Part shown: positions 3,506 to 49,792 of the stretch, one piece after another
Position numbering within the stretch: position 1 is the first letter of the stretch
How the letters are laid out: every line of letters starts with the position of its first letter
Assembly: GCA_964520655.1 (NCBI GenBank)
Contig: CAZFNI010000004.1
Span: 25,628 to 89,627 of the forward strand
Reading direction: 5' to 3'
DNA length: 64,000 bases
Source of the DNA: an uncultured Planctomycetales bacterium
GTDB lineage: Bacteria > Omnitrophota > Gorgyraeia > Zapsychrales > Fredricksoniimonadaceae
Translations under genes and position numbers: made by a program
The notes under the pieces: model-generated
Seen by the model: only the letters and a program-made list of their open reading frames with translations
Database searches by the model: none
What the model was told of the DNA's origin: nothing

Positions 3506-6500
3506 ATGTGTTACTCTATAAGCATGCTAAGGAATCTCTTCAGCTACATTATTGTTTTGTGCCTTTTGCCATGTCCGCAAATACATGCCCAGGAGCTGGT
3601 TTTGCCTGTGCCGGGCACCATGGTGTCTTTAAGCCCTGCCTTTAACGCCCCTGTCCTTAAAGGCCTTAAGGTTCATGCGGAGGATCCATTCCGCTTCGAT
3701 TTCATCATTGATCCTGGCAATAACGCGGGGACTCAAGTCAAAGAAGAATCTGCCAAGCTCATCAAATATTTCCTGGCCAGTTTGACCACGCCGGAGAAGG
3801 AACTGTGGGTTAACTTAAGTCCGTATGAAAAAGAACGCATTGTGCCGTCAAGTTTTGGCCAGACAGCAATGGGCCGCGATCTCTTAGCGCAGGATTATAT
3901 TTTAAAGCAATTGACCGCCAGTTTGGTTTATCCCGAAGGGGAGATCGGCAAGAAATTCTGGAAACGGGTCTATGAGATCTCTGCCAATAAGAATGTGCCG
4001 GTCAATACCTTTAACAAAGTTTGGATCGTACCAGGCAAAGCGGTGGTGTATGAGAATGCCAAGGCAGGAACGGCGTATGTCGTTGAGTCCAGACTTAAAG
4101 TCATGACGGAGCAGGATTATTTGGCGACGAGTAAGCATGAAGCAACGGGGCCTGCCGCCGCATCACCTGTTTCGTCCTCGCGCCACCCATCCCCCGGTGG
4201 GGTAGCAGATACAAAAACGACATTTCCCGTGGCGCTGCGGTCAAAACAGGCTGACGCGGCGTCACCCGTTGCTGGCGTATCACAAGTTGTCCGCGAAACC
4301 GAAGGTTCCCTGCAGTCTAATAAAGTGTTGCAGGACATTGTCATCCCGCAGCTGACCAAGGAGGTCAATGAGGGCCAGAGCTTCACTCAGCTGCGCCAGG
4401 TCTATAATGCGCTGATCTTAGCGACGTGGTACAAACAGAAGATCAAGGACAGTATCTTGACCCGTGTGTATGCGGATAAAAACAAGATCAAGGGCACGGA
4501 ATACGCCGATGCCTTAAACGCGCAGGCCATTTATCAGCGCTACCTTCAGGCTTTTAAGAAGGGCGCGTATAATTACATCAAAGAGGAACAGGACCCGGTG
4601 ACGATGCAGATGATCCCGAGGAAGTATTTTTCCGGTGGGGTGCAGCTGGAGTTCGGTAAAGGGATTGACTCTGCCATGGTCGTGACAACAACAAAGCCTG
4701 CGAATATTCGGGGTGACTATTGGGTTGTCGAGAGCGGTTTAAAGAGAATAAAGTTCAATGACAAAGCCATGACGGTTCCTTTGATGAATCCGGATGAATT
4801 CAATGCTTTGATAACACAGATAAATCAAAAGAGACTCACGGTGAATGTCGAAGTTCCTCCCCGTGAACAAGGTGGATTTAATGACGGTGATCGATTTGTG
4901 GTTGCTTATAAATTGGAAGGCCTTGCGTTATTACCGGAAGGGTTGACAAGTAAGATCCCTCAGGGACAGAATTTTGGTGTGAGGATCAGGATGCGCACGA
5001 CGACACCGGCCGAATATAACCCGGTGTTTGAGACCAGGGGATTGTTGTCAGCTTATTACAGGATGGACACAGGGATGATAGAGTTTTTGGTAAAGGGGCA
5101 TCTTACAGAGAGAGAATTAAAAGAAGCCAGGACATCGATCAACCATGAATTTACTCACGCCTTGGTCCTTCATCCGATGACCTCCCAGCAAGTCATGACG
5201 TTAGAAGATCATAATGCTATTTTGACGGGGATGGGTTTTAGGCTTGGGTTTATTGAGAATGGTTTGATCAAGATCCAGGATCGTTTTAATTCTTTTGAGG
5301 AGGTCATCAAGTGGCAATCTGATGGCAAGCGTTTTTATATCAGAGGCAATAACGTGTTGTTGGATGCCAATAATGTCAAGCGATTGAATTATTTCAAACA
5401 GTTCGAACGCAGATTCAATGCCCAGGGGTTAACGATCGAGCCTTACAGCGACAATGCGTCCAATCATTTTATTTCGTCTCCTCAAGAGGTGATCGCATAT
5501 GCAGCCAGTGAAAGCCAGTCTGCGCTTGAGAAAATGTTGAAAGATGTAGGGTATAAGGACAGGGTCACGCAAGTGTACCAGGCTTTGATGCAGATCCTGC
5601 ATAGGAATCTGTTAAGAAGCGCAGAGCCGGTTGGGCGGCATACGGACGGATCGTTAGTGTATGAAATGTATACACCGAGCGCTTTAGACAGTGAGGACGG
5701 ATATGTCACTCAATTAGCAACGGCGCAGTACCTTGGGGTAAGTGACAAGGCCCAGATCTCCAAAGCCGCGTTGGCGGTAGGTGCGGTGGTATTTGCTGGG
5801 GTTTCAGGGGGTATTTATTGGTTAAAGTCGTATCAGGATGAGATGGATGCGATCAAAGCGCGGCCAAGGGTCACGCTGGCAAAGACCAATCCGTTTTATG
5901 ATTCTATGGCGAGAGCCTTAGTAAGAACCCTACCTGGAAGTTCTGAGGAGGCTTCCCTTGCGGGCAGCTCTGTCGATCCCAAGCGTGCTAGTGTGAACAT
6001 CGGCGTGATAGCGGGAGAGAACATCATTCCCAGGGAGTTAAAAATATTGGCGTATAAATATTTGTTTACGACCATGCTCATGCGAATGCCGTCATTGAAT
6101 GTGGATGATATGTTGAGATCTATTGAATCTCAGGATAGTAAGGGATATTTACGAACTGTCGAGAATAAGGAATCTTTTCTGAAATTCTTAAAGGGGCTTA
6201 GTGCGGTCATCACGGCACAGGGTTATATCGGGAAGCTCGAGCTCATTAGCGGCTATGATCTAGGTGCGGTTAAACAACAATGGTTAGCGCTGCATCAAGG
6301 TGAGATCGAAAAGAGTTTAACGAATGTTGAGAATACAAAACAGTTTGATGATCTTCTTGTTGAAGGAATTGCAACGGATGGGGTGATGACTCCAGAAGCT
6401 TTCTTAAAAAGGTTAAAGGACCTGGAGGAACAAGTTAAAGATAATGCCGCGAAGCGCAACATCGCTTTATCATATCCGGAAACCGTCAGATTGATGCGTG

Positions 6501-7003
6501 TGCTTGATCAAGGTGGTTCCATTGATGCTATATTTGAGGCGGGTCAAGCCGGCGTTGATTTTTTACTATCTCAATCATCATTGGGTTCTAGATATTGGGA
6601 TGCAGATAGTTTTGCGCTTTCTTTTAAAGCAGGTGCGGCAAGTGTTTCATCTGTGCGGGATACATTAACAGGAGAGGGCATCCTTCCTACGATCAGAGAA
6701 ATTGCCTTGTTCTTAAAGTTGAGGGCACAAGGGCTGCCCACGGAGGAGATTATATCGAACATCAAAGGACAATTGGCCAAAGAGGAGAAGAAAATTACAG
6801 GAGACCAGGCTCAAACGGCGAAAAAAGGTGGTATTGATTTTAATGCTGACAAAATGGACCTGGAAACCCGCAATCAGGGCGGAGCGATCACCTTTAAGGT
6901 CGATCCCGCGCAATTGAAAGAACTGCAGGACGCTGCCGGCTTTGCCGCGGTCATCATCAGTGTTTCGCCTCTAAAAGACCTTCGCTTATTCCTCGGTATT
7001 TAA
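3506..7003 (+). CDS. Giant secreted protein, paralog 1 (1165 aa): signal peptide + conserved ~370-aa N-domain + unique middle + conserved ~60-aa C-terminal module
   Basis: Signal peptide 'MLRNLFSYIIVLCLLPCPQIHA' (an alternative ATG lies at 3524). The N-domain 'QELVLPVPGTMVSLSPAF...IPRKYFSGGV' is shared with the ORFs at 26159 and 46538. The C-terminus 'GGIDFNADKMDLETRNQGGAITFKVDPAQLKELQDAAGFAAVIISVSPLKDLRLFLGI' is shared with 26159..34462. Confidence 0.8.
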   Translation: MCYSISMLRNLFSYIIVLCLLPCPQIHAQELVLPVPGTMVSLSPAFNAPVLKGLKVHAEDPFRFDFIIDPGNNAGTQVKEESAKLIKYFLASLTTPEKELWVNLSPYEKERIVPSSFGQTAMGRDLLAQDYILKQLTASLVYPEGEIGKKFWKRVYEISANKNVPVNTFNKVWIVPGKAVVYENAKAGTAYVVESRLKVMTEQDYLATSKHEATGPAAASPVSSSRHPSPGGVADTKTTFPVALRSKQADAASPVAGVSQVVRETEGSLQSNKVLQDIVIPQLTKEVNEGQSFTQLRQVYNALILATWYKQKIKDSILTRVYADKNKIKGTEYADALNAQAIYQRYLQAFKKGAYNYIKEEQDPVTMQMIPRKYFSGGVQLEFGKGIDSAMVVTTTKPANIRGDYWVVESGLKRIKFNDKAMTVPLMNPDEFNALITQINQKRLTVNVEVPPREQGGFNDGDRFVVAYKLEGLALLPEGLTSKIPQGQNFGVRIRMRTTTPAEYNPVFETRGLLSAYYRMDTGMIEFLVKGHLTERELKEARTSINHEFTHALVLHPMTSQQVMTLEDHNAILTGMGFRLGFIENGLIKIQDRFNSFEEVIKWQSDGKRFYIRGNNVLLDANNVKRLNYFKQFERRFNAQGLTIEPYSDNASNHFISSPQEVIAYAASESQSALEKMLKDVGYKDRVTQVYQALMQILHRNLLRSAEPVGRHTDGSLVYEMYTPSALDSEDGYVTQLATAQYLGVSDKAQISKAALAVGAVVFAGVSGGIYWLKSYQDEMDAIKARPRVTLAKTNPFYDSMARALVRTLPGSSEEASLAGSSVDPKRASVNIGVIAGENIIPRELKILAYKYLFTTMLMRMPSLNVDDMLRSIESQDSKGYLRTVENKESFLKFLKGLSAVITAQGYIGKLELISGYDLGAVKQQWLALHQGEIEKSLTNVENTKQFDDLLVEGIATDGVMTPEAFLKRLKDLEEQVKDNAAKRNIALSYPETVRLMRVLDQGGSIDAIFEAGQAGVDFLLSQSSLGSRYWDADSFALSFKAGAASVSSVRDTLTGEGILPTIREIALFLKLRAQGLPTEEIISNIKGQLAKEEKKITGDQAQTAKKGGIDFNADKMDLETRNQGGAITFKVDPAQLKELQDAAGFAAVIISVSPLKDLRLFLGI

Positions 7004-7226
7004 TTCAGATTCCTGGGGTGCTTTTTGCCGTGCGTGGCATGGAACCCGCAGGGAAACGGGATGCTTCTTTCTAGATGCTCACCCCCAGCCCCCACAACAG
7101 ATGCACGTTGGTTGAATGCAATGCTTGAGGTTAATCGTTGAGTATGAATTAATAGGGTGGCATCTGGTGGGGGACGTTCGCATCAGTAAAGAACATCCCG
7201 TATCCCTGCCAGGACCCGTTTCATGC

Positions 7227-9695: not shown

Positions 9696-9711
9696 TATCC
9701 TTTAAAAATAA

Positions 9712-10395
9712 TCATTGTCTACGGATATTTGCGAGTGTTCTTAGGTATTGTTCATGTATGCGGTCTGAAGCGATGCACAGGCTGGATCGCTGTTTGTGTT
9801 GATGCTTGCCCATGATCATCCCCAGGAGTTTCCCTTGGCGGTTAAAGATCGGTCCGCCGCTGTCACCCTGAAAAAGGTTCAAATTCGTTTCAAGGAATTC
9901 GATCGTGCCCCGGCTTTGGCTGGCAACAAGACCGGTGATGCTCCCCGATAGGATGCTGTGCTCATTATAGTCCGATGAACCGATCGCGATGATCGATTCT
10001 CCCAGTTTGGCTTGAGCGGAATCCGCGAATAAGACAGGTTGTAAGCCGGAGGCATTGATCTTGATGATGCTAAAATCGTGGTCGGTCGAGACAAAGAGGA
10101 CCTGGGCATAAAATATACGGCCATCTGCGGTTGTAATGGTGATCCGCGGCGCGTTCTTGATGATATGGGTATTGGTGATGATCAGACCTTTGGCATCGAT
10201 GATGATCCCGGTGCCTTTGCGAGTATAGCTGACTTGCTGGGGACCTTTGGGGGTTTTAACGATCTTGGTATAGATCGTTTTGACGCTGACGATCGATCTC
10301 TCCAGCTTCTGCATTTTTGCCAACAGAGATGTTTCCGCGTGAAGCGGGGAAGCGGTCAAGAACAGGATCATAAGGCTGCAAATAGTACTTAACAT
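9712..10395 (-). CDS. Secreted trypsin-like (S1 family) serine protease (227 aa)
   Basis: Signal peptide 'MLSTICSLMILFLTASPLHA'. The catalytic serine motif 'GDSGGPIF' is present. Confidence 0.8.
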   Translation of the reverse strand: MLSTICSLMILFLTASPLHAETSLLAKMQKLERSIVSVKTIYTKIVKTPKGPQQVSYTRKGTGIIIDAKGLIITNTHIIKNAPRITITTADGRIFYAQVLFVSTDHDFSIIKINASGLQPVLFADSAQAKLGESIIAIGSSDYNEHSILSGSITGLVASQSRGTIEFLETNLNLFQGDSGGPIFNRQGKLLGMIMGKHQHKQRSSLCIASDRIHEQYLRTLANIRRQ

Positions 10396-10424
10396 TATTT
10401 TATTCTACCGTATAATAAACGTTT

Positions 10425-12441: not shown

Positions 12442-12442
12442 T

Positions 12443-13222: not shown

Positions 13223-13241
13223 TTCAGGTATCATTGATTTT

Positions 13242-15209: not shown

Positions 15210-15210
15210 C

Positions 15211-26158: not shown

Positions 26159-29100
26159 GTGAAACCCCTTCAACATAGACTTATATCCTTCTTGGCGGCT
26201 ATTGCTTTTGCCGCAACGCTTATTGTCCCCATCCCAAGCCGGGCGGAATTGTTACTACCGGCTCCCGGAACGCTTGTTACTTTAAGTCCTGCCGCTGATC
26301 TTCCCATCTTAAAAGGTATCAAGGTCCATGCTGATAACCCCTTGAAGTTTGAGTTTATTCTGGATAATGGAAGAGAAACAGGTGAGGTGGCGTTAAAGGA
26401 ACAATCCAGCAAACTCATCAAATATTTCCTGGCGAGCTTAACCACGCCTGAGCAGGAGATGTGGGTCAACTTAAGCCCGTATGAAAAAGACCGCATCGTG
26501 CCGGATAGTTTTGGTCAGACCGAAATGGGCCGCGACCTATTGGCTCAGGATTATTTACTCAAGCAGATCACCGCGAGTTTAGTCTATCCGGAAGGGGATA
26601 TTGGCAAACAGTTCTGGAAGAGAGTGTATGAGTTATCGGGGAATAAGAATGTTCCGGTCAACACGTTTAATAAAGTGTGGATCGTCCCGGACAAAGCGGT
26701 GGTGTATGAGAATGCGAAGAATGGTACAGCGTATGTCGTTGAATCATCATTAAAGGTATTAACAGAACAGGATTATCTAGCCCAGGATAAGAATGCGGCG
26801 GGTGGCGCCCAAGCTGTTCGTTTCGCCCGCAGCTTAAGGGGGACAATGGCTTTATCTTCTGCTACCCCACGGGGGGATGGGTTAAGCGAGGACGAAACGA
26901 ATAGTTGGGCGACAGGACCCGCTCATGCTATCCGGGATCTTGTCATCCCTCAACTGACCAAAGAGGTCAATGAAGGTAAGAATTTTGCGCAGCTGCGTCA
27001 GGTTTACAATTCTCTCATTCTTGCCACATGGTACAAGAAGAAGATCAAGGACAGCATCCTCTCCCAGGTTTATGCCGATAAGAACAAGGTAGACGGTATC
27101 ACCATCGATGACCCCAAAGAGAAAGAACGGATATACGCACAGTATTTGGAAGCCTTCAAGAAGGGGGCGTATAACTATATTAAAGAGGAGCGTGATCCCT
27201 TAAGCGGGCAGGTGCTGCCCAGGAAGTATTTTTCCGGCGGGGTAAAATTTGGCGATTTGGCGATGACGACAAGCGCCAAGCCTCCTCAGCAAAATGTTCA
27301 TCAAATTGCGTCTGTTGTAGAAGTAAGGATCGATCAGTTAGGGGCTGGTTTGGATAACGCAATGACTGCGGCTTCTTTGCAGGGGGAGAGGAAAGATCCT
27401 CTTGTTTTAAAAGGCAAGATTGTTGAAAGAGATACATTTAATCATATTTCTTCCATGGTTCGCAGCAGCAGAGAGGCGACCCCTCGTGTATGGGAGATTT
27501 CTGATTTTGAGAAAGTTTTGTCTCATCCACTTCAACTTAAGCAGTTTGTTGATTTGCCTCTAAGCGTTGCGGCTGAAGTGATGATCGTGTATACGGATGA
27601 CGGACGATGGCTTTTTTGTGCAGCTGGGGTAGAGCCTGGTGTTTCCCTTGACCCTTTTAAGGAATTAATTGACCAAAAAAAGATCGTGTTCCATATGCAT
27701 TCGCATCCATATATTCACGAAAATAGAACGTTTGGGGGCAATACATCGGAATATCCATCATTGGTTGATTTAGAATTCTTTGAATATTACGGCGGCATCA
27801 GTGGACATCTATCGAGAGAGGGGTTGACCATTACCAGAATGCCGCCAACGAGATTGTCAGGTGATAAAAGAGGTGGTACCGATTTCCATTATGAATTTAA
27901 ACGTTGGGTGTGGAAGGAATATCCGTGGCTTGATTCTCCATTGGGATTAGGAAAAGAATCTAAAAAGGCCTACAAGGATTACCTTAGATCCATGGATGTG
28001 GATATTAATATTGTGCCTTGGGATGAGGGGGCTTTAAGATCTGCTTTGTCTGGAGCAATCAACCAGGCCATGATGACCAAAGCACGAATCCTTCAAGACC
28101 CCTTACAACCCGCCAGGGATCGCCGTATTCCGTTAGATAAAGAAGCGTTAAAACCGTTGTTAAAAGGGAAAACGATCCTGATCACTGGTGGGGGGGGCTC
28201 TATTGGTTCCGCTTTAGCTTTTGAGATCTTGAAAGAGTTCGGGGATGATATAGAAAAAATTGTTTTGTTTGGTCAAGGCTCAGAAAATCTTGCTAAGGTA
28301 GTGGCGCAAATAAAGGGGATGGAAAGATCCGCGCAGAAAGTTATTGTTGTTACGGGTGATGTGAGCCGTTTAGATCAAATTGAGCCTGTTTTCAAAGAAT
28401 ATAGTCCACAGATCGTTTATCATTTAGCTGCTGAGACATCCCCGGTTATTACTCAAGCAGATCCATCCCGTGCCATCGCAGTGAACGTTTTTGGAACACA
28501 CAATATGGTCGCTTTGGCGGATCGGTATAGCACGGAACATTTTATTTACACATCTTCCAGCAAAGCCACAAATGTTTTACCAGATAGTGTCTTAGGACAA
28601 ACCAAGAGGCTGGCAGAATATCAAGTCCAGTTAAAAGCCAGGAATAGCCGCACCCAATTTGGGATCGTCCGTTTCGTGCATACATTAGATACTAGGGCAA
28701 GCTTGGTCATGAAGATATTCCAAGACAAGATCGACCGCCATGAGCCATTGCCGGTTATGCGGGAGGCGGCTACGTATTTTCAGAATACGCATGAAGCGGT
28801 TAATCTTGCGTTGAATGTCCTTTTACTGTCCCGTAAAGGCGAGATATTTGCCCTGTCGGATGTTGGTCGACCGGTAAAGATTGAGGACATTGCCCGATAT
28901 TTATTATCGCAAAATGGCAAAGGCGATGAGCAGATCAAATTCATTCCCTTAAGAGAAGGGGAAGTTGTTCCTGTTTTTCAACATGAAGATGCAGGAAGGG
29001 CTGTCATAGCGGCGCAAGAGTACAAGGGTGTTCTGGTGGAGAATAAAGCGATCGCAGAAGGTGTGCCGCTTGCGATTGATGGTGCGGTGTTGTCCGAAGG

Positions 29101-32100
29101 GTTGGAAAGGTTGCATAGTAATTTAGGGAACACTGCGGTGGATTTAAAGGCGGAGCTTGTTGAATTGATGAAAGATGTTTATGGATCCATTGATCCTGCT
29201 CAGAAGGCATCAGAAGATGAAAGGCAGGCCTATGTAACAATGTTTAAGGATAAACTATTTGGAAGCAAGAACGGGTTTAACATTACGCTCAAGGGTGGAC
29301 AACGGCTTCCTGTTGTCCTTACTCAATCACAACAACATTTTGTCAGCCATGATCCATATGCGCTGGATATTGTATTGTCTCCTGAGTTTGAAGATAAGGG
29401 CGTATTAGAACAATCATTTCCTGGTTTGGCCTTTTTATATGATTTTACACCGAAAGATGATTTCGCTCCGCCGCAGGGATCCATCGGTCAGGTGGGGGTT
29501 AATATGATCTTCCCTCGAGTGACAATGAAGGAACTATTGGCTCTTGCTAAGGATCCGGACGCTTTTTATGAGTTCAGGATGAATCTTCCCAGCCGGATAT
29601 CCTATGGGGCGATCTATAAGGGGGAACTGGATCTTGATGAGCATCAAGCGAGAATGAAAGAATTTTTTCAGGAGAATTATGAAAAGGTCAGGGAATTATT
29701 TGACAAAATGTATCATCAATCCCCGATCTTGGTGATCACCTATAATCAAGCCAGTGGCGCTCTAAGAAGTTCTTCGAAAAATGGGCGCATGTTTCCAGAA
29801 TGGATTGAGGCCGTGCATCGCCATATATTGGAAGCAGCCTCGTCAATGGGGATTAAGGATATCTATGCCATTCCCTCTGATTTGGCGGCGTTTTTGTATC
29901 CTGGGTTGAAGAATGAAGATGCGCTGCGTTTAATGTATGACCGTCCGTATCAGAGTAAGCCGTATTGGAGGCAGGAGTATGTAAAAGATGATCAGCTGTT
30001 TGGTCAGATCAAAATGGAATATAGGTTAAGCGGTTCATACTTTTGGAAATATCATGCCAATTCCGGTGAAGATCATGCTCAAATATCTGACCCGACGTTG
30101 TTGCTAAACACTAATCAAAAGATATTCAAAAACGGTGTCCGTTTAGTTGAATATCCAAGTAGCGATGATGTGACCTACTATGCCGCGCGCCGCATGGCGG
30201 ATGTTCTGATCACCAATAATGCATTAAAGCGCCAGACGCGGATGATAACACCTACCGGTGGAACATATGAACCGGTGTATGCAGCGTTTGTCCGGATCGT
30301 TAAGGAAGAGGGGATTGATTGTTCGAATTTGATCACATATAACATGGATGAATATTATGTGGGACAAGATGGTGCCAAAGGCCGTTGGGATCAGCATCCG
30401 CAAAGTTACCGTCAGTTCATGGAAAAACATTTATACGCTCCGCTGCGGGAGATCGGATCAGGATGGAATAATGACAATGGGCATGTCTTAAACGGCAATG
30501 CCGTGGACATCGATGCAGAGGTGAGGGCTTATGAGCAGGCGGTGCGTGAGGGAGGGATCGATATCGCTTTTGGCGGCATCGGACGTGATGGGCACATTGC
30601 CTTTAATGAACCGATCATTACTGTTAGTGCGTTTGGTTCCATTGAAGTTGAGAAAGCCAGGGACTTTAATGAGTTTTTATTAGACATCCCTCCGGAGAAA
30701 CAATTAGATCTGTTGGAGGAGGTTTTAACAAAACATTGGGCCGCTCGGCGCTCATCTGTTTTTGCAGAGTATTTAAGAATGAATCTAGTTGTCCCTTATT
30801 TCCCCGCAACGTTGCCGGATGATCTAGCTGCATTTATGGAAAAATTGTTGCGTCAGCCGGTCGTGATCTATTTTAAACATTTAGATGATGATTTTAAAAA
30901 GGTTTTGGAAAAACGTGCCGCTAACTTAGCATCCATGATGGGGGGAGGCTCTGTTACTGTTAAGGAATTAAAAGATCCGGCGGATATGCCGACCCGGGTT
31001 GTTCACCTGGCATTGCCGACATTGTTTGATAACAGCCGTTTTCTTAAAGAGGACATCAAGAACATGCGTGATATCCCGTTGTCCGCATTAACAGTCGGCC
31101 CAGGAACGTTGCGTCATGCTAAAGAAATCGTTGTTGCAGCAACCGGAGCGAAAAAAGCAGAGGCTGTCACCGATGCAGCGTTAAATAAACCAACTCCTGA
31201 TGTTTCGGCGTCCCTGCTTCAAGGGCATCAGAACCTCACGTTTGTTTTTGATACATCTGTAGCAGAGAGCTCAAGGCCGTTGCAACAGGCGTACGCAAAA
31301 GAGGCGAAGATCCTTGATGATCAGCGGTCTCTTCCTCCTTCAGCAGATGCTGCTATGAGGGCGGAGGGTATTTCAGCCAGAGAGAGAGCTGACAAGGCTT
31401 TATATCAAGCCTTGGAGGGAGCTTTGTTCGAATCAGCGAATATGGAACTTCAAGTCAAGGGGTTTGGCAGGGTGCCGCTGAGATTTTCTAAGGCAAGGTT
31501 CCACATGCCAGGGCCATTATTTGCCGATGAGTATCCGTTGGATGTGGTGGTTAGTCCAAAAGAACCGTACACTCAAGAAAAAGTACGTAAGGAAATACTC
31601 CCTCCAATGGATTTTCTTTTTGATGGAAAAGACCCAGGGGCATTTTATCCTCCCAAAGGTTCTTTTGGTCAGATAGGCATTAGTTTGGTGTCTCTGGATC
31701 ATTCGACCGCCTTATTGATCAACTACAATCAGGCAAGCAACGGGTTAAGATCATCTGGCAAGGACGGCCGTCCATTCATTGGTTGGGTTGAAGCGGCCCA
31801 TGAACGTATCATTGAAGCTGCGCGCTCTGTTGGGATACAGCAGATCTATGCGTTGCCAAGCAAGGCGGCCGGTAAGCTCTATTATGGACTTGAGAGCGCT
31901 GATGCTGTTAATCTGGCCTATGAAAAACCTTATCAGAATAAAGAACACTGGAAGGAAGTTGTTGTTGATGAGGAGTTAGCCAGAAAGATCAAGGTTGGAT
32001 TTAATGATCATGAACAGCCGTTCTTATGGAAATATGATCTCGGAACATTAAAAGAAACCCCAGAACTTATAAATGAAGAAGGAGTATCAGCGGATTGGCT

Positions 32101-34462
32101 TCGTGGGATGTTTGAACTTGACTCAGAGGGAAGAATGTCTTTTGCGTCAGGCTTTAACGGTTTGCCGTTATTGTTTGACTTATATTATGTCCGACATGGG
32201 CAGACAAAAGGCAATCTTGAGGGGATCTTACAGGGGCAGCAGGAAACAGCCAACAGTCAGTTGACGGACGAAGGTATTTCACAGGCCAAACAAGCAGCGG
32301 TAAAACTGTTTGATCAATTGGGGCTGGCAAAGTCAAAACCTTCCCGCTCATTGGTCATTGTGACTAGCCAACTTAACCGGACCAAAGAAACGGCGGATTT
32401 CTTTGTCCAGATGCTTAAGGATCATGGTGTTCCATTTGAGATCGTCGATGATCAGTTACAGCGATTGATCAATGAATTAAATGTTGGCGCGATGGGCAAT
32501 AAGAAAGAGTTGATGCCGCAGGAGCAGGATCTATTGAAGCGATACATGGCAGCCAATGCGAAGGAAAAATTCCCTCGAGGGGAAAGTTTTGTAGATCTGA
32601 TCCTTCGCGCAAGGCAATGGCTGTTGAAAATGAATGAACAGTATCAAGGTCGCACGGTCGTTGTGTTTGGTCACGGTAATCAAAGCGGCGCACTGCGGGC
32701 TTTATTGGGCGACCGGACAATCCTTAATGGAGAGGGAAGCGTCGACTGGATCAATAATAAACTTCCTAATGCATTGCCGGTGCAGTTAAGTTCCGGATTT
32801 AAGGCTGATGCGGCAATGCGTGCGGAAGATATTTTTGATTTCGAGAAAGATGAATTGAAAGTGGTTGTGTTAGAACGGAAATTACAGGAAGTGATGTTGA
32901 AGGTCAACAATGGAGGAAGGGCGATCATTGTCGGTGGGACAAGATATTTTAATAGCGGACAACGTAAAGATGTCGATGTTTTGTTAAAAGGGATGGATAT
33001 GTTCAGTCAAGGCGGCAGCTTTGTGGCCGCCTTAAAAGAAATGCTGCTTGCCTATGAGGGTGTGCGTATTGATGATGTGATCGATCTAAGAAAGCGCAGG
33101 GTGATTATAAAATTCACTCTTCTTGGGGAGAATCATCAGAGTCGTTCATTATCTATTGATCTGATCGGATTCTTCGATGGAGATGATGCTGCGTTGGTCA
33201 GAAGGCTTAAAGAAGTCGCGGTGAATGGTTTTCGCATGCATATCTCTAACGCGGAGTATGAGGATAAGTTTAATGAGCTGGCAGTAAAAGATTATTTTGA
33301 GGTTGAGTATTACTTAGGCGACCGCACGGTTTATGAGCAAATGCTTGGCAAGTTCAAAGATCCCGTAACAATAGGAGAATTTTATAAACCGGATGGTCTG
33401 ATGGCCAACAGGATGATGGAGCTAAGGTCTAAAGTGCAGGGTCTGACTGATCAACAGATCGCTGAGGCAGTCGATGCGAAATTGGCTGTCTCCGCTGACA
33501 TGGCCCAGCGTGTAGGAGAACCACTGGCGCCTTTCAAGGGATTTAATTTATCGTCACAGCAAATGAGCCGCTTGGCGGATTTTTTAGGTGTTCCTCAGGA
33601 TGTTCTAGAAAACGAGAATTTAGTGCCTCAGCATCCGGAAAGGCCGTCATTAACCTCGCGACAGACTTTTAAATATACCTATTTAGGGAAGGAGTTTTAT
33701 GTAAAGTCTGGTCCGGATTACGAAACATTATTGGAAGAAGCAAAAACAGCCAACGTTGTCCATAATAGCGGTTTGTCAACTCAGGCAGCGGTCGTTGGGA
33801 ATAATATGCTGTTGCTCCCAGAAGAACTGCGCGATAAATATGCGGATCCAGCGATCGCTAGAACTAAGGGATTTATGCTTGTAACAAAAGGAGCCCAGGG
33901 AGAAAGCTGGTTCTCGATATTAAAAAAAGGGAATAAGATCACTTATCAGATGGTCGTGGATTTGGCAAGAGCCATGGGAAGGCTTCATGCCCAAGGATTA
34001 GCGCATAATGATCTATACAGTCAAACAGAAGGTTTTAAAACGGAACATATCTTCCAAACAAGTCAAGGTGTTGAGTTTATTGATTTTGGATTGACTTCGA
34101 GGCTTTGGCCTCAAATCTTTCATGAATCAGAAAAAAAAGCTGTTTGGCAGGCATTAAGCCGTATGGTTGATGCACAAACAGGCGGCGAGACATTAAAAAA
34201 AGTCTTTGATGACGCCTATCTTCAAGGATTTCAAGATAGTGAGCGTAGGCCTGTTTCTGGAGATGCGGCCATGGCAAAAGGCGGGATTGATCTTAATGCA
34301 GGGAAATTGGACCTTCAAACCCGCCATGAGGGGAAGGGATTGGAGTTTAAGACTGATCCGGCCTTGCTGAAAAGGCTTCAAAATGCCTCTGGATTTACCC
34401 CTGTGATCATCAATATCCGCCCCTTAGGGGATTTGAACGTCTTTCTAGGTGTCAGCGGTTAA
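26159..34462 (+). CDS. Giant secreted multi-domain protein, paralog 2 (2767 aa): conserved N-domain, CapD-like dehydratase, NagB-like, His-phosphatase, kinase-like, conserved C-module
   Basis: GTG start. Signal peptide 'MKPLQHRLISFLAAIAFAATLIVPIPSRA'. The N-domain is shared with 3506 and 46538. 'KGKTILITGGGGSIGSALAFEIL'+'TKRLAEY' indicate a CapD/WbpM-type NAD Rossmann domain. 'ITPTGGTYEP...NMDEYYVG...GGIGRDGHIAFNEP' indicates NagB. 'LYYVRHGQTKGN' with a downstream 'VVFGHGN' indicates a histidine phosphatase. 'LAHNDL...IDFGL' indicates a protein-kinase-like domain. The C-module reads 'GGIDLNAGKLDLQTRHEG...DLNVFLGVSG'. Confidence 0.8.
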   Translation: MKPLQHRLISFLAAIAFAATLIVPIPSRAELLLPAPGTLVTLSPAADLPILKGIKVHADNPLKFEFILDNGRETGEVALKEQSSKLIKYFLASLTTPEQEMWVNLSPYEKDRIVPDSFGQTEMGRDLLAQDYLLKQITASLVYPEGDIGKQFWKRVYELSGNKNVPVNTFNKVWIVPDKAVVYENAKNGTAYVVESSLKVLTEQDYLAQDKNAAGGAQAVRFARSLRGTMALSSATPRGDGLSEDETNSWATGPAHAIRDLVIPQLTKEVNEGKNFAQLRQVYNSLILATWYKKKIKDSILSQVYADKNKVDGITIDDPKEKERIYAQYLEAFKKGAYNYIKEERDPLSGQVLPRKYFSGGVKFGDLAMTTSAKPPQQNVHQIASVVEVRIDQLGAGLDNAMTAASLQGERKDPLVLKGKIVERDTFNHISSMVRSSREATPRVWEISDFEKVLSHPLQLKQFVDLPLSVAAEVMIVYTDDGRWLFCAAGVEPGVSLDPFKELIDQKKIVFHMHSHPYIHENRTFGGNTSEYPSLVDLEFFEYYGGISGHLSREGLTITRMPPTRLSGDKRGGTDFHYEFKRWVWKEYPWLDSPLGLGKESKKAYKDYLRSMDVDINIVPWDEGALRSALSGAINQAMMTKARILQDPLQPARDRRIPLDKEALKPLLKGKTILITGGGGSIGSALAFEILKEFGDDIEKIVLFGQGSENLAKVVAQIKGMERSAQKVIVVTGDVSRLDQIEPVFKEYSPQIVYHLAAETSPVITQADPSRAIAVNVFGTHNMVALADRYSTEHFIYTSSSKATNVLPDSVLGQTKRLAEYQVQLKARNSRTQFGIVRFVHTLDTRASLVMKIFQDKIDRHEPLPVMREAATYFQNTHEAVNLALNVLLLSRKGEIFALSDVGRPVKIEDIARYLLSQNGKGDEQIKFIPLREGEVVPVFQHEDAGRAVIAAQEYKGVLVENKAIAEGVPLAIDGAVLSEGLERLHSNLGNTAVDLKAELVELMKDVYGSIDPAQKASEDERQAYVTMFKDKLFGSKNGFNITLKGGQRLPVVLTQSQQHFVSHDPYALDIVLSPEFEDKGVLEQSFPGLAFLYDFTPKDDFAPPQGSIGQVGVNMIFPRVTMKELLALAKDPDAFYEFRMNLPSRISYGAIYKGELDLDEHQARMKEFFQENYEKVRELFDKMYHQSPILVITYNQASGALRSSSKNGRMFPEWIEAVHRHILEAASSMGIKDIYAIPSDLAAFLYPGLKNEDALRLMYDRPYQSKPYWRQEYVKDDQLFGQIKMEYRLSGSYFWKYHANSGEDHAQISDPTLLLNTNQKIFKNGVRLVEYPSSDDVTYYAARRMADVLITNNALKRQTRMITPTGGTYEPVYAAFVRIVKEEGIDCSNLITYNMDEYYVGQDGAKGRWDQHPQSYRQFMEKHLYAPLREIGSGWNNDNGHVLNGNAVDIDAEVRAYEQAVREGGIDIAFGGIGRDGHIAFNEPIITVSAFGSIEVEKARDFNEFLLDIPPEKQLDLLEEVLTKHWAARRSSVFAEYLRMNLVVPYFPATLPDDLAAFMEKLLRQPVVIYFKHLDDDFKKVLEKRAANLASMMGGGSVTVKELKDPADMPTRVVHLALPTLFDNSRFLKEDIKNMRDIPLSALTVGPGTLRHAKEIVVAATGAKKAEAVTDAALNKPTPDVSASLLQGHQNLTFVFDTSVAESSRPLQQAYAKEAKILDDQRSLPPSADAAMRAEGISARERADKALYQALEGALFESANMELQVKGFGRVPLRFSKARFHMPGPLFADEYPLDVVVSPKEPYTQEKVRKEILPPMDFLFDGKDPGAFYPPKGSFGQIGISLVSLDHSTALLINYNQASNGLRSSGKDGRPFIGWVEAAHERIIEAARSVGIQQIYALPSKAAGKLYYGLESADAVNLAYEKPYQNKEHWKEVVVDEELARKIKVGFNDHEQPFLWKYDLGTLKETPELINEEGVSADWLRGMFELDSEGRMSFASGFNGLPLLFDLYYVRHGQTKGNLEGILQGQQETANSQLTDEGISQAKQAAVKLFDQLGLAKSKPSRSLVIVTSQLNRTKETADFFVQMLKDHGVPFEIVDDQLQRLINELNVGAMGNKKELMPQEQDLLKRYMAANAKEKFPRGESFVDLILRARQWLLKMNEQYQGRTVVVFGHGNQSGALRALLGDRTILNGEGSVDWINNKLPNALPVQLSSGFKADAAMRAEDIFDFEKDELKVVVLERKLQEVMLKVNNGGRAIIVGGTRYFNSGQRKDVDVLLKGMDMFSQGGSFVAALKEMLLAYEGVRIDDVIDLRKRRVIIKFTLLGENHQSRSLSIDLIGFFDGDDAALVRRLKEVAVNGFRMHISNAEYEDKFNELAVKDYFEVEYYLGDRTVYEQMLGKFKDPVTIGEFYKPDGLMANRMMELRSKVQGLTDQQIAEAVDAKLAVSADMAQRVGEPLAPFKGFNLSSQQMSRLADFLGVPQDVLENENLVPQHPERPSLTSRQTFKYTYLGKEFYVKSGPDYETLLEEAKTANVVHNSGLSTQAAVVGNNMLLLPEELRDKYADPAIARTKGFMLVTKGAQGESWFSILKKGNKITYQMVVDLARAMGRLHAQGLAHNDLYSQTEGFKTEHIFQTSQGVEFIDFGLTSRLWPQIFHESEKKAVWQALSRMVDAQTGGETLKKVFDDAYLQGFQDSERRPVSGDAAMAKGGIDLNAGKLDLQTRHEGKGLEFKTDPALLKRLQNASGFTPVIINIRPLGDLNVFLGVSG

Positions 34463-39434: not shown

Positions 39435-39437
39435 CGC

Positions 39438-40160: not shown

Positions 40161-40189
40161 CCAATAACCATCAGAATGGAGTTAAAGTA

Positions 40190-41128: not shown

Positions 41129-41150
41129 CGTAACGTAAAGGGAGAATATT

Positions 41151-41756: not shown

Positions 41757-41782
41757 CGCATCTTTATAAAGAAGGGACATGT

Positions 41783-42925: not shown

Positions 42926-42941
42926 CGGATGTGAGGGAAGT

Positions 42942-44528: not shown

Positions 44529-44536
44529 CGGATCGC

Positions 44537-45187: not shown

Positions 45188-45201
45188 ATATGATCTTTTA
45201 A

Positions 45202-46482
<1,281 letters not shown>

Positions 46483-46537
46483 CTTGATTTTACCCCCATG
46501 GATAAGGCATACTTTACCTAAGGGTTAGTATGCGTAT

Positions 46538-49500
46538 ATGTTAGGAAAAAAACATCCCATCTTTCATTTAATGCTGGCGGCGGTTCTGGCCATGGGTTTT
46601 GATCCCTCTCTGGTCTTGGCCGAAGAGCTTGTTGTTCCGGCAATGCCCAAGGCTGGGACGATGGTCTTTTTAAGTCCGGCGTTTCAACCGGCAACTGTCA
46701 TGGGCATGACCATTTCTCCGAAGGATCCGTTTCAATTTGATTTTTTGATACAGCGGGGAGATGGGGTTTATGATGAAACATCGAAACAGCAGGAATACCG
46801 CAAACTTATCAAATATTTTCTGGCCGCGTTAACGGTCCCCGACCATGATCAGTGGGTCAATCTTTCTCCCTATGAACAAAACCGCATTATCGAAGAACCA
46901 TTCGGCCGGACAGAAATGGGTCGGGACCTTTTGGCTCAAGATTATTTGCTCAAGCAGATCACTTCATCCTTGATGTACCCCGGAGCAGGCCTGGGTCAGG
47001 CATTTTGGGACAGGGTCTATGCGCAGGCAGGCAGTGCTTTGGGCAAGAGGGATATACCGGTCAATGCTTTCCATAAAGTATGGATCGTTCCCGACGATGT
47101 TGTTATCTACGAAAATCGTCAGGGCGCGGTCATTTTAAAGAGTCATTTGAAGATTATGCTTGAAGAAGATTACTTATCTTCTCTGAAGCATAAAGCGGGT
47201 GACGCCCAAGCTCATTTTATTGCCCGCAGCCCCAGGGGGACAATGGCTTCATCTCCTGCTACCCCACGGGGGGATGGGTGGGGCGAGGACAAGAAAATGA
47301 GTTTGGCGGCAGGACCCGCTCTTGCTAGCCAGGTTATGCGTGACATTATTCTCCCTGAACTTGAGAAAGAAGTGAATGAGGGCAAGAACTTCGCGCCGCT
47401 GCGCCAGATCGTCAGCGCGATGCTGATGGCCACCTGGTATAAAAAAGCGTTAAAAGGATCGCTGCTGGGTCAAGTTTACGCGGATAAAGGCAAAGTCGGC
47501 GGTGTATCCAGCGACCCAAAGAATATTGAAAAGATCTACGCACAATACCTGGATGCGTTTAAGAAGGGGGTCTTTAATCTGATCAAAGAGGATCAAGACC
47601 AGCTGACCCATCAGGTGATCCCCAGGAAATATTTTGCCGGCGGTTTCAGCCGTGACGAGGCGATGGTCACCTATGTGGGAAGCGCTTCTGGTGATGAAGT
47701 GGACCTAGGGGATGGTAGAGAGCGTTTAATGGCGATTGCTGCGAGAAAACATGTGCGGCTTAGCGAAGTGTTGAGAGCCAGTCCGCGCATATTGCCAGAG
47801 CTGATCGTTGAGACGCTGCTGTATGGATTATTTTGGAAGGTCATCGATCGCGCGCGGGTGAATATGGATGAATCGAGAGGCGGAGCCATGATCATTGTTG
47901 GTAAGCCAAAAGAGCCGGTTGTTGCGCCTTCTTCTTCGATCACGACATTGTCAGGTGACACGCGATCAAGATTCTCTCAGCTGGTTAATCTTAATATTGA
48001 AGAAGCGTTCCATACAACTGGGACAGGCAGTCTCCATGAGCTTTTAGGGGTCAAGTCAGAAGCGGCGATCGGTTATCCCGCACTCGAGGAGCTTGTCATT
48101 TTACCGAATAAGATAGTCGGGGGGTATAAGATCTCGGCACAACCTCAAGCCAATATTTTTCTAACGATCAATGATGCGAAGTATGTATTTGCTTATAATG
48201 AACTTTCCACCGAGGATAAAAGGCAGTATGTGCTGTTCGCTGATGATCGGGAGATCGGCCGTTTCGATTTTTCTGTCCCGCTTGTCATCCGAAAAGACCT
48301 TATCCCGGCAGAACTTGTGCCGCTGTTGATCCAGGGGGATAGTCCTGTCCTTAAGGAACATCCTCAAAATAAGAAAGAGCTCTACGCGATATTGGATTTT
48401 GAAGGACTGATGAGGCTTATTTTAGAGAATGAAAAGTCTCTGATAAAGCTAAAAGAGCATATGCGTCTGCAGGATGTGTCCTTTACAGATACCCGTGGCG
48501 TTGTGGTGAATTTAACGATCGCGGTGCGCAGGGGCAAAGACGGAGGCGCTGATCTGTATTTGTTCCCGCGCAATGGAGAGAAATTGCCGCCTATTTGGCA
48601 GCTGGCTGTGCCGGCCTTCGATGCGGCGATGTCTGTTGATGGTGATGAGGTCACCCAGGCGATTCATGGACGTTTCGGCGAAATGATCTTAGAGTCTTTA
48701 CGCTTGCCGGGCAAGGTGAATATCGGGGATCGTTCATACGAGGCTGTTGCTGGAGGGAAAGGGGTGCAGCTTAAGGGGCTCAACGATTCCCGGGAGATCC
48801 GTCCCATTCTCTCTTCGGATGCTCTGTTGAGATATGGTTTTGTAAAAAGAGCGGTCAATGCGCTGCAGGCCAAAGGTCTGGTGATCAAAGATGATGACAA
48901 CAATATCGCGTTGGATCCGGATATTCAATTGCGAGATTTCAATGATGTTTTTAATGTGTCATTTACCCAGGAAGCCAGGCGGCTTAATTTGGATGCGGAT
49001 GAGATCAGGGGGATGCTCCTTGGGACCATTGGTTATGTGCTCAAGGTCCAGGAACGTAATGTCCAGGGGTATTCCGGCGTATGTGTGGTCTTAAGCAAAG
49101 ACGGTGTTTCGCTGCGCATCCTGACATTTGCCGGCAGTGAACCTGCGGTCTCTTTTTCCAGGACGAGACCTCCGCAGGAGATCATCGTTTCCCAGATGGC
49201 AGCAGGGCTGAAAGCCATTAAGGCCAGGGAAGGGCGGTACATCGGGGTTGTGAATTCAAAAGGCTCTGTGAGGTATTTTGATGAAAAAGAAGCGGAAGGT
49301 TTTGCGGATATTTATGCCGCCAGGATGATCATCCTCGAGAGAAACTTTAACTGGAAAGTTACGCGTGAACAGATCATGAAAATGATCTTTAAGGGTGAGA
49401 TCATCCCGTTCCAATTCACCGTTGCCAAAGACGGTTCTGTGGCATTTTCCAATGTGGGTAAACAGTCGATATTCTCTAAGAATGTGACAAGTATGGCGAA

Positions 49501-49792
49501 GGAGGGGGAGCTGCTGGCTGCTTTACTTAACCAGGATGCTGCGCAGGCCTCTAATGCGGATGATCTAGGGGGTATTGACCTGGATCCCGCCCACTTTAAT
49601 ATGCGTATCAAGCGTGATGCCGAAGGGGTTGTTTTACCTGCGGCGCTGCAGGACTTGAAATATTTTGAGAATATCCAGGGGCTGGTCCCTAATATTCTTG
49701 AGATCAAACCCGCCGAGGATGTTCCTATCCTTCGTGAGATCCAGCAAGAGATCAAGGTTGGCGTACAAACGCCTCATATCCCCGCGAACTGA
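46538..49792 (+). CDS. Giant secreted protein, paralog 3 (1084 aa): signal peptide + conserved N-domain + unique middle + divergent C-terminal module
   Basis: Signal peptide 'MLGKKHPIFHLMLAAVLAMGFDPSLVLA'. The N-domain 'EELVVPAMPKAGTMVFLSPAF...IPRKYFAGGF' is collinear with the other two paralogs. The C-terminus 'LGGIDLDPAHFNMRIKRDAEGVVLPAALQDLKYFENIQGLVPNILEIKP' is a divergent copy of the C-module. Confidence 0.8.
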   Translation: MLGKKHPIFHLMLAAVLAMGFDPSLVLAEELVVPAMPKAGTMVFLSPAFQPATVMGMTISPKDPFQFDFLIQRGDGVYDETSKQQEYRKLIKYFLAALTVPDHDQWVNLSPYEQNRIIEEPFGRTEMGRDLLAQDYLLKQITSSLMYPGAGLGQAFWDRVYAQAGSALGKRDIPVNAFHKVWIVPDDVVIYENRQGAVILKSHLKIMLEEDYLSSLKHKAGDAQAHFIARSPRGTMASSPATPRGDGWGEDKKMSLAAGPALASQVMRDIILPELEKEVNEGKNFAPLRQIVSAMLMATWYKKALKGSLLGQVYADKGKVGGVSSDPKNIEKIYAQYLDAFKKGVFNLIKEDQDQLTHQVIPRKYFAGGFSRDEAMVTYVGSASGDEVDLGDGRERLMAIAARKHVRLSEVLRASPRILPELIVETLLYGLFWKVIDRARVNMDESRGGAMIIVGKPKEPVVAPSSSITTLSGDTRSRFSQLVNLNIEEAFHTTGTGSLHELLGVKSEAAIGYPALEELVILPNKIVGGYKISAQPQANIFLTINDAKYVFAYNELSTEDKRQYVLFADDREIGRFDFSVPLVIRKDLIPAELVPLLIQGDSPVLKEHPQNKKELYAILDFEGLMRLILENEKSLIKLKEHMRLQDVSFTDTRGVVVNLTIAVRRGKDGGADLYLFPRNGEKLPPIWQLAVPAFDAAMSVDGDEVTQAIHGRFGEMILESLRLPGKVNIGDRSYEAVAGGKGVQLKGLNDSREIRPILSSDALLRYGFVKRAVNALQAKGLVIKDDDNNIALDPDIQLRDFNDVFNVSFTQEARRLNLDADEIRGMLLGTIGYVLKVQERNVQGYSGVCVVLSKDGVSLRILTFAGSEPAVSFSRTRPPQEIIVSQMAAGLKAIKAREGRYIGVVNSKGSVRYFDEKEAEGFADIYAARMIILERNFNWKVTREQIMKMIFKGEIIPFQFTVAKDGSVAFSNVGKQSIFSKNVTSMAKEGELLAALLNQDAAQASNADDLGGIDLDPAHFNMRIKRDAEGVVLPAALQDLKYFENIQGLVPNILEIKPAEDVPILREIQQEIKVGVQTPHIPAN

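Follow-up and report, generated by a model that had tools for sequence, protein, structure and literature searches.

Why would three large genes of one bacterium begin alike and end alike, with middle parts that have nothing in common? This question is raised by a stretch of contig CAZFNI010000004.1 (the window, 64,000 nucleotides (nt) in full), which derives from an uncultured member of the Omnitrophota. These are widespread, uncultured and ultra-small bacteria that are thought to live on or prey upon other microbes. The three genes, termed G1, G2 and G3, make up 23.5% of the 64-kb window. Each of them encodes a cleavable-looking signal peptide, an alpha/beta head of about 340-350 amino acids (aa), one to many unrelated cargo modules and a tail of about 60 aa. 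They appear to belong to an undescribed superfamily which is, as far as the resources used here show, specific to the Omnitrophota and is characterised by a new head, a new C-terminal module and a motif between the modules. An earlier reading, made from the DNA alone (the sequence-only reading), had described the conserved head, conserved tail and swappable middle, and this layout proved to be real in G1-G3 and general across the family. The delimiter motif D-x-A-M/Q, the mostly cytoplasm-type enzymes in the cargo and the confinement to Omnitrophota were not part of that reading.

Results

The three genes and their divergence

All three open reading frames (ORFs) are present as they had been delimited before:

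3506..7003, + strand: G1, family member of 1165 aa, with signal peptide, head, two to three cargo modules and tail
26159..34462, + strand: G2, family member of 2767 aa, with a GTG start
46538..49792, + strand: G3, family member of 1084 aa

The regions behind the heads had been called mutually unrelated, and BLASTP found no significant similarity among them (best E-value 0.067). The heads of G2 and G3 are 62% and 46% identical to that of G1, respectively, and the mean column identity in the alignment of the three heads is 69%. At the nucleotide level, the head paralogs are 54-62% identical, their longest identical run is 24 nt, and the third-position identity at conserved residues is about 0.5. 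Judged by their sequences, G1, G2 and G3 are old paralogs. An exact look-up of the G3 sequence returned no record.

Signal peptide and head

The predicted Sec-type signal peptide was found on all three proteins, with a basic n-region, an h-region and an A-x-A-type site just before the (Q/E)EL(V/L).P stretch. The shared N-terminal region behind it was delimited as a head of about 340-350 aa, which closes at the invariant PRKYF(S/A)GG. The positions are as follows (a slash marks the end of the signal peptide):

3506..3589, + strand: G1 signal peptide, aa 1-28, ..IHA/QE
3590..4639, + strand: G1 head, aa 29-378, ending with PRKYFSGG
26159..26245, + strand: G2 signal peptide, aa 1-29, ..SRA/EL
26246..27241, + strand: G2 head, aa 30-361
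46538..46621, + strand: G3 signal peptide, aa 1-28, ..VLA/EE
46622..47644, + strand: G3 head, aa 29-369

Of the 127 family members with a complete N-terminus, 125 have a Sec-type signal peptide before the head, and the junction between the two is unusually well conserved family-wide (..FGP.P.AQA/Q(D/E)F.LP.PG.MV.LSP). The signal peptide itself is unusually alike across species (..LIFAFLVNTFGPLPLAQAQDF.., for example in P0227-P0252). Its conservation may reflect recognition beyond generic Sec targeting.

The head carries the signature WVNLSPYE .. MGRDLLAQDY.LKQ .. PRKYFSGG, and many of its invariant residues are polar (N, S, E, R, D, K, Y). An AlphaFold2 model built from a 54-sequence alignment gave a mean predicted local distance difference test score (pLDDT) of 73.6, with 137 residues at or above 90, and a predicted template modelling score (pTM) of 0.66. 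The predicted fold is mixed alpha/beta, with a variable internal loop of low confidence and three long C-terminal helices. In G1, the loop (aa ~218-260, nt ~4157-4285) is of low complexity, variable in length and modelled with pLDDT <50; a RGTMA.S.ATPRGDG..ED segment in the loop is common to G2 and G3 and absent from G1.

Neither the head nor the tail had been recognised as a described domain in the sequence-only reading, and both indeed lie outside the named families, with neither a sequence nor a fold match in Pfam, NCBIfam or PDB. For the head, Pfam and NCBIfam gave no match in the whole proteins, nor in isolated heads at E<=1. Its profile found nothing among PDB sequences at E<=10, and its model had no fold match in PDB. 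The Pfam/NCBIfam scans also revealed no peptidoglycan-, lipid- or S-layer-binding signature in it.

C-terminal tail

The likeness of the G1 and G2 tails was borne out by 51% identity over about 60 aa. The G3 tail had been described as a weaker copy; its pairwise identity is 17%, yet a hidden Markov model (HMM) built from 62 family tails matches it at 8e-16. The tail HMM E-values were 2e-24 for G1 and 9e-24 for G2, and the three genes were the sole matches in a six-frame translation of the window. The tail of G3 represents a second flavour (type B, ..IKRDxxGxxLP..), which is also present in other genomes.

6827..7000, + strand: G1 tail, type A, aa 1108-1165, GGIDF..FLGI
34280..34459, + strand: G2 tail, type A, aa 2708-2767
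49568..49756, + strand: G3 tail, type B variant, aa 1011-1073, followed by an 11-aa extension

The consensus of the tail is GGIDL..IKF.DPA.L.QLQNAPGF.PVIINIQP..L..FLG. Isolated tails had no match in Pfam or NCBIfam at E<=1, and a profile search of PDB gave none at E<=10. In the AlphaFold2 model, which is of low confidence (pLDDT 69, pTM 0.22), the tail is mostly coil with two short helices. The model suggests that the tail probably does not fold on its own. Because the prediction is mostly coil, a role as a signal or docking peptide would fit.

Family size and distribution

At least 1,429 relatives, all of them unnamed or 'hypothetical', were returned when the G1 head was used in a word-indexed search, whose matches were apparently limited to ~1.7-1.9 times the query length and thus biased to short or fragmentary proteins. 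Their named sources were all Candidatus Omnitrophica/Omnitrophota, bar one partial 'Minisyncoccia' fragment. An exhaustive head-profile search against 1.84 billion cluster representatives (50% identity clusters) matched 8,362 clusters at E<=1e-3, of which 6,758 remained at E<=1e-30. The best 150 of the 8,362 clusters all have the head just once and as one piece, at the very N-terminus of proteins 435-2915 aa long; lengths in the family range from 0.4 to 3.7 thousand aa. Besides, a scan of one genome per GTDB species yielded at least 594 head loci, and the best 80, on which the neighbourhood analyses were carried out, all lie in Omnitrophota metagenome-assembled genomes (MAGs). Some Omnitrophota MAGs with head loci are deposited as 'uncultured Planctomycetales'. 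Several loci can occur in one genome: the assembly JABDGZ holds 8 of the best 80, and up to 3 copies lie within one 20-kb locus. A phage or mobile origin was rejected, with the head carried by only 3 of 2.9 million viral contigs.

The sequence-only reading had raised the question of whether head and tail always occur together, and in which phyla. Searches with the head HMM confined the family to Omnitrophota among named sources. The tail was found <=40 residues from the C-terminus in 127 of the 145 full-length representatives (88%), and never in more than one copy. At the loci, 61 of the 69 tail-bearing ORFs also carry the head; the other 8 are either truncated at the edge of the locus or represent the downstream part of a copy that a frameshift or a stop has interrupted. 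Head and tail are separated by a single in-frame stop in L006 (nt 4692-4694) and by frameshifts in L025 (~12868-12898) and L075 (~11215-11275), and these split homologues may be sequencing errors, pseudogenes or cases of recoding. The divergence of the head and that of the tail are correlated (rho 0.57, reached by 0 of 300 permutations). The correlation need not reflect a specific pairing of head subtypes with tail subtypes, since co-inheritance accounts for it, and a type-B tail on a type-A-like head (one case, P0276) is a counter-example.

One intact member is free of cargo. P0066 (L084:2704-4020; 438 aa) consists of a signal peptide, the head, an 18-aa linker and the tail, is found on 5 contigs, and is followed in tandem by a 1110-aa cargo-bearing member (L084:4093-7425). 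Cargo-less carriers as a common form were rejected, no second example having been found among the best 120 matches of a search that is biased to short proteins.

The D-x-A-M/Q delimiter

The motif D-x-A-M/Q marks the borders between head and cargo, between one cargo module and the next, and between cargo and tail. The copies at these borders in the window are:

4667..4678, + strand: G1 delimiter DSAM, aa 388
4760..4771, + strand: G1, DKAM, aa 419
5744..5755, + strand: G1, DKAQ, aa 747
6803..6814, + strand: G1, DQAQ, aa 1100
27254..27265, + strand: G2 delimiter DLAM, aa 366
27353, 29192, 30071 and 31346 (first nt), + strand: G2, DNAM, DPAQ, DHAQ and DAAM, respectively
32807, 33497 and 34262 (first nt), + strand: G2, DAAM, DMAQ and DAAM, respectively
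47654..47665, + strand: G3 delimiter DEAM, aa 373
48620..48631, + strand: G3, DAAM, aa 695
49535..49546, + strand: G3, DAAQ, aa 1000

G1-G3 contain 16 copies of D-x-A-M/Q, against ~1.9 expected from composition. The other ORFs of the window contain 0.32 per 1000 aa, and the rate in G1-G3 is 10-fold higher (Fisher p=7e-7). In 117 cargo regions of independent members, D.AM was observed 314 times against 12.1 expected (26-fold). It is the most enriched of all gapped three-residue patterns, and 113 of the 117 proteins have at least one copy. The enrichment is family-specific: the non-family ORFs of the same loci have 35 copies against 26.7 expected, and about half of these 35 lie in fragments of family genes. 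The motif can be refined to [D>N]-x-A-M-[N/T]-[A/S/T], with unconserved flanks that are rich in G/S/A/P/K. D.AQ is only 1.7-fold enriched family-wide, M being the rule and Q a local variant.

The position of the motif follows the module borders. None of the 8 copies in G2 lies inside a recognised domain, and both copies of a duplicated module of G2 start a few residues after a motif. In 63% of the members, a motif is found <=25 residues after PRKYFSGG, often with a second copy 30-50 residues further on, and in 44% a motif lies <=15 residues before the GGID of the tail. Elsewhere, the median spacing is 240 aa, about the size of a domain, and copies often cluster in short linkers. Blocks of cargo homology between members end close to a motif, at a median distance of 16-18 aa, whereas random placement gives 77 aa (84 high-scoring segment pairs). 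In the head model, the first motif copy falls in a segment predicted with low confidence, right after the last strand.

At six places in the window genes, Q (CAG/CAA) stands for M. Five of them are equivalent borders, including those directly before the tails of G1 and G3, and the sixth is inside the G1 tail. The codons for the D and the A of the motif vary freely (GAY/GCN). Because the codons vary and Q replaces M at equivalent borders, it is the peptide that is under selection. Two other readings of D-x-A-M, as a site of DNA recombination and as an internal start codon, were rejected on the same grounds. The split homologues break by frameshift or in-frame stop, not at D-x-A-M.

Segments resembling signal peptides, lipoboxes or Tat signals follow 14 of 304 motif methionines, compared with 34 of 2,363 other methionines (3.3-fold, p=6e-4). 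Lipoprotein-type (..LVGC, ..VIGC), Sec-type and Tat-like (RRQFLSKLG) signals stand right after the motif methionine in P0369, P0354, P0312, P0253 and L002 (aa ~437-467). Many modules look like whole captured proteins because such signal-type N-termini coincide with the motif methionine.

Cargo modules

The cargo of the three window genes is divided as follows:

4772..5743, + strand: G1 cargo module 1, aa 423-746, no family match
5756..6802, + strand: G1 cargo module 2, aa 751-1099, with a signal-anchor-like hydrophobic start
27365..29191, + strand: G2 cargo module 1, aa 403-1011, N-terminal part without match, then a PglF/CapD-like SDR sugar 4,6-dehydratase, aa 658-937
29204..30070, + strand: G2 cargo module 2, aa 1016-1304, a domain without family match that is duplicated in module 4
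30083..31345, + strand: G2 cargo module 3, aa 1309-1729, glucosamine-6-phosphate deaminase (NagB)-like with an insertion; the NagB-like domain spans aa 1327-1702
31358..32806, + strand: G2 cargo module 4, aa 1734-2216, second copy of the duplicated domain and a histidine phosphatase, aa 2008-2185 (RHG present)
32819..33496, + strand: G2 cargo module 5, aa 2221-2446, without family match but with a homologous module in the member L015
33509..34261, + strand: G2 cargo module 6, aa 2451-2701, weakly Kdo/WaaP-type kinase-like (E 0.0027, below cut-off; HNDL and IDFG motifs)
47666..49534, + strand: G3 cargo, two modules, aa 377-694 and 699-999

The duplication in G2 covers ~270 aa (aa 1016-1304 versus 1734-2000, nt 31358-32158 for the second copy; 32% identity, E 7e-37), and the duplicated domain has no match in Pfam. 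The G1 cargo was not matched by any library, and the G3 cargo neither by any library nor by other cargo of the family.

In the cargo of 49 other members, 48 Pfam families were identified, nearly all in 1-3 proteins each. They include methyltransferases, protein kinases, phosphoribosyltransferases, HATPase_c, Glu/Ala dehydrogenases and PPDK_N, as well as SNF2 helicase, GGDEF, NUDIX, GNAT, GDSL lipase, AAA_5, HEAT and uridine kinase; a zeta-toxin-like domain and others occur among short members. The cargo domains assigned in this way are overwhelmingly enzymes that are cytoplasmic elsewhere and use nucleotide cofactors.

Among 3,288 pairs of members with heads >=75% identical, only 42 (1.3%) have similar cargo. 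Where cargo is shared, it is 25-68% identical, compared with 64-79% for the heads. Homologues of the eleven cargo segments of the window were found in only a handful of ~230 other members. These comparisons point to an extreme turnover of the cargo while head and tail stay constant.

HExxH was observed 32 times in cargo regions against 2.7 expected (12-fold), yet in only 28 of 117 members (24%), and an embedded universal protease was rejected on this count. Some individual patterns in the window cargo were also recorded. A zincin-type HEFTH motif lies in G1 cargo module 1 (nt 5144-5158). After DKAQ, G1 has a hydrophobic 19-mer (ALAVGAVVFAGVSGGIYWL; aa 755-773, nt 5768-5824), which resembles a signal anchor brought in with a captured protein. 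As a possible stop-transfer segment, it could leave the second half of G1, including the tail, in the cytoplasm. The first cargo module of G2 contains a JAMM-like HMHSHP...PSLVD pattern (nt 27692-27769); the JAMM reading was rejected, as it has no Pfam support.

Neighbouring genes

As had been stated, the three genes are dispersed among housekeeping operons. No neighbour is conserved across the 80 loci and the window. G1 follows GspK-like, PilM-PilN and TPR genes, G2 follows purK/purE/ppc and G3 follows purA. The short AT-rich spacers that had been described upstream of all three were found for G1 (14 nt, G+C fraction 0.14) and G2 (51 nt, 0.27), and less so for G3 (55 nt, 0.40). The genes before G1 (13-3491, +) are a GspK-like gene, a PilM-PilN fusion ORF (473 aa), a 183-aa ORF without assignment and the TPR gene, which ends 14 nt before G1. 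This arrangement suggests that G1 may be co-transcribed with an assembly operon resembling those of type II secretion systems and type IV pili. Such an operon is found upstream of G1 only, not of G2 or G3, and is not the rule at other loci.

The neighbours were clustered over 81 sources, that is, the 80 loci and the window. The top recurrent families were HD-GYP, KdpD, TPR, ABC-F, GT2, UvrD, STT3 and a trypsin-like peptidase. No conserved secretion or processing gene beside the family genes and no conserved downstream gene was found in the 80 loci and the window. Downstream of G1, on the opposite strand, lie a gene for an STT3/PglB-type oligosaccharyltransferase (822 aa, 7227-9695, -) and one for a small trypsin-like peptidase (9712-10395, -). 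Homologues of each occur near family genes in 4 of the 81 sources, and a link to N-glycosylation or processing is possible, not general. A further large ORF of the window (1084 aa, 18448-21702, +) lies between purK and a gene for a polysaccharide deacetylase; it lacks both a Pfam match and the D-x-A-M motif, and no signal peptide is visible by eye.

Discussion

Comparison with known systems

The sequence-only reading had likened the layout to passengers of type IX and type V secretion systems (T9SS, T5SS), sortase substrates and polymorphic toxins. Every testable defining feature of these classes is absent from the family. Cargo of the T9SS also has an N-terminal Sec signal and carries a C-terminal module on many unrelated enzymes as an address or docking tag. 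The C-terminal domain (CTD) of such cargo is a folded beta-sandwich of ~80-100 aa, described by models of the Por_Secre_tail/TIGR04183 type. In contrast, the tail of the family has ~60 aa, is mostly coil in a low-confidence model (a weak test) and matches no CTD model, and the T9SS has no conserved head. T9SS machinery genes were not found among the recurrent neighbours in the 64-kb window and the 20-kb loci. Dockerins are likewise conserved C-terminal docking tags of 60-100 aa on unrelated enzymes. A dockerin is a duplicated pair of calcium-binding, EF-hand-like elements (PF00404), whereas the family tails neither match PF00404 nor show an internal duplication, and the cellulosomal system has no conserved head.

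Classical autotransporters (type Va secretion) end in a beta-barrel translocator of 250-300 aa (PF03797); the C-terminal element of the family has only ~60 aa and no Pfam match. TpsA proteins are closer in outline, since in them a Sec signal is followed by a conserved N-terminal domain of ~250-350 aa on variable large exoproteins. That domain, the two-partner secretion domain, is a beta-helix (PF05860, with NPNL/NPNGI motifs) and is recognised by an adjacent TpsB of the Omp85 type. The family head is predicted to be alpha/beta with long helices and does not match PF05860, and no adjacent TpsB-type transporter was found in the 80 loci and the window. MARTX toxins (Vibrio RtxA) have conserved N- and C-terminal regions around a variable string of effectors, which are released by cleavage between the domains. 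They are exported by type I secretion without a Sec signal, have glycine-rich repeats and contain an inositol-phosphate-activated C80 cysteine protease that cleaves after Leu. The family, on the other hand, has a Sec signal peptide and no glycine-rich repeat or C80 match in Pfam or NCBIfam.

Polymorphic toxins (CdiA/Rhs) share with the family a conserved trafficking part, swappable cargo and a short motif at the junction of conserved and variable parts. They have a VENN or PxxxxDPxGL demarcation, a variable C-terminal tip and a downstream immunity gene. In the family, however, it is the middle that varies and both ends are conserved, the delimiter is D-x-A-M, one protein holds several modules, the cargo is mostly metabolic or regulatory, and the 80 loci and the window show no conserved downstream gene. 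Finally, substrates of sortases, exosortases and rhombosortases end in a sorting motif, a transmembrane helix and a basic tail, whereas G1-G3 have no hydrophobic segment at the C-terminus.

The nearest published relatives in concept come from the same phylum. Two preprints (West-Roberts et al. 2023, 10.1101/2023.11.21.568195; a preprint of 2026, 10.64898/2026.06.07.730766) and Seymour et al. 2023 (PMC10066038) describe giant and long multi-enzyme proteins of Omnitrophota with signal peptides or transmembrane segments, for which cleavage is suspected and the cleavage points are unknown. Omnitrophota are reported there to be host-dependent or predatory (10.1101/2023.11.21.568195; 10.64898/2026.06.07.730766; PMC10066038). 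The family resembles these proteins in carrying many cytoplasm-type domains on one polypeptide (methyltransferase, HATPase_c, GNAT, HAD, NUDIX, GGDEF, kinases). G2, in which a signal peptide is followed by SDR dehydratase, NagB, histidine phosphatase and kinase-like modules, agrees with the description of multi-enzyme proteins (class 1 of 10.64898/2026.06.07.730766). The published thresholds are >=10,000-30,000 aa, however, whereas G1-G3 have 1165, 2767 and 1084 aa. The searchable text of the papers on giant and multi-enzyme Omnitrophota proteins makes no mention of the head, the tail or D-x-A-M, and the searchable literature, with subscription-only papers outside it, holds nothing specific on the family or on an Omnitrophota polyprotein idea. 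All four features of the family, that is, signal peptide, head, terminal tail and D-x-A-M/Q, are present in G1, G2 and G3.

Proposed mechanism

We tentatively propose, with confidence somewhat short of even, that G1-G3 are Sec-exported modular carriers or polyproteins in which D-x-A-M/Q would be the processing sites, head and tail the common handles, and the modules would act outside the cytoplasm of the producer. The precursor would be threaded through Sec. Head and tail would then serve a shared step after Sec, in which they may be recognised by envelope or secretion machinery or by each other. D-x-A-M/Q would be read as a peptide signal, most probably by a protease, and the polyprotein would thereby release its individual modules. 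An unlinked enzyme may provide this proteolytic activity, or the head may do so itself. The released modules would act outside the producer, plausibly in or on host or prey cells. An effector role in another cell would make sense because cytoplasm-type enzymes are exported here by an ultra-small, host-dependent or predatory bacterium. A more far-reaching version is that Omnitrophota use a bacterial polyprotein strategy, in which dozens of unrelated enzymes and exported proteins stand behind a common head and are cut between A and M/Q of the motif. The head would then be a novel domain, either for translocation or with a self-processing peptidase activity, and the tail would supply a novel signal for export or docking. 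We consider this version unlikely.

Several observations weigh against the proposed carrier. The sequence-only reading had suggested an export or anchoring system with interchangeable passengers; its layout, its readable Sec targeting and the absence of a known family held, and the export or anchoring function, like every step beyond Sec targeting, is something we infer. No protease domain is universal in the family. The head lacks invariant His and Cys residues, and it matches none of the peptidases in structure. A conserved partner gene for a transporter or protease is absent from the 81 sources, the best neighbour family occurring in 8 of them. A D-P-A-M/Q copy is located within the conserved tail itself, an odd place if the motif served cleavage only. 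About one fifth of the members, including G1, have hydrophobic stretches in their cargo, which could be stop-transfer anchors or invert the topology and so put downstream modules and the tail in the cytoplasm. The enzymes requiring ATP, NAD or S-adenosylmethionine would have no obvious extracellular substrates unless delivered into another cell, and no device for such a delivery was identified. The intact cargo-less P0066 also hints that head and tail have a function of their own.

Alternative explanations

That last point leads to a surface or periplasmic scaffold, in which head and tail would anchor or self-assemble, the tail or linker motif of one molecule docking into the head of another, to form an enzyme-displaying coat or mesh with D-x-A-M as a docking or hinge element. 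Such a scaffold would be in keeping with a tail that is predicted to be unfolded alone, like docking peptides, with the motif copy embedded in the tail, with P0066, with the very strong conservation of the head across species and with the extracellular 'coat' of giant Omnitrophota proteins that is proposed in PMC10066038. The correlated divergence of head and tail (rho 0.57) would also suit it, but is equally expected from co-inheritance, and P0276 combines a type-B tail with a type-A-like head. Moreover, cargo-less members are rare (one only among the best 120 matches), nucleotide- and cofactor-dependent enzymes have no obvious use when displayed outside the cell, and the head lacks peptidoglycan-, lipid- or S-layer-binding signatures. 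We regard the scaffold as rather unlikely. A polyprotein that is cut between A and M in the cytoplasm, before or during export, seems to us distinctly improbable. In that case only the head and the modules with a signal peptide of their own would leave the cytoplasm, the enzyme modules would remain in it, and the fusion would ensure co-expression, as in viral polyproteins. The cargo does consist of typical cytoplasmic enzymes, and cleavage at this point would recreate native-like N-termini because signal-like segments, which are 3.3 times more frequent after the motif methionine, directly follow it. This explanation leaves the universally conserved exported head and the conserved tail unexplained. 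The replacement of M by Q at equivalent borders speaks against it as well, as do the domains that often begin >=~20 aa past the motif, the modules that can hold two domains and the absence of any cytoplasmic protease candidate among our findings.

It is very improbable that the family is a diverged form of a known class, be it T9SS CTD cargo, an autotransporter, TpsA, MARTX, a dockerin enzyme or a sortase/exosortase substrate. The resemblance is a general analogy only, in that a Sec signal and conserved ends enclose variable passengers in all of them. Pfam and NCBIfam models gave no match even at E<=1, PDB gave neither a sequence nor a fold match, the tail of ~60 aa is mostly coil without a transmembrane helix, and no partner transporter gene lies nearby. 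The sequence-only reading itself had named a collapsed-repeat artefact as one explanation that would undo its claim. A collapsed repeat is excluded because the head copies differ at ~40% of their nucleotides. The ORFs are intact up to 8.3 kb and the same head-cargo-tail joins recur in thousands of independent assemblies, so that a collapsed or chimeric repeat, or a chance similarity, has a practically negligible probability.

Conclusions

The huge multi-enzyme proteins of Omnitrophota are a recognised puzzle, and the present family offers three searchable handles on it: the head, the tail and a four-residue delimiter. These handles define thousands of proteins and split each of them into modules. 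Because the motif marks the module borders, the question of how the multi-enzyme proteins of this phylum are processed becomes directly testable. If the head or the tail is a new export or docking signal, it would represent a principle of secretion or assembly outside the numbered secretion systems, and the family would provide a catalogue of candidate effectors for the whole phylum. If the polyprotein reading is true, the same code might account for the processing of the giant ORFs of 10-150 thousand aa and for the arrival of effectors in the host or prey.

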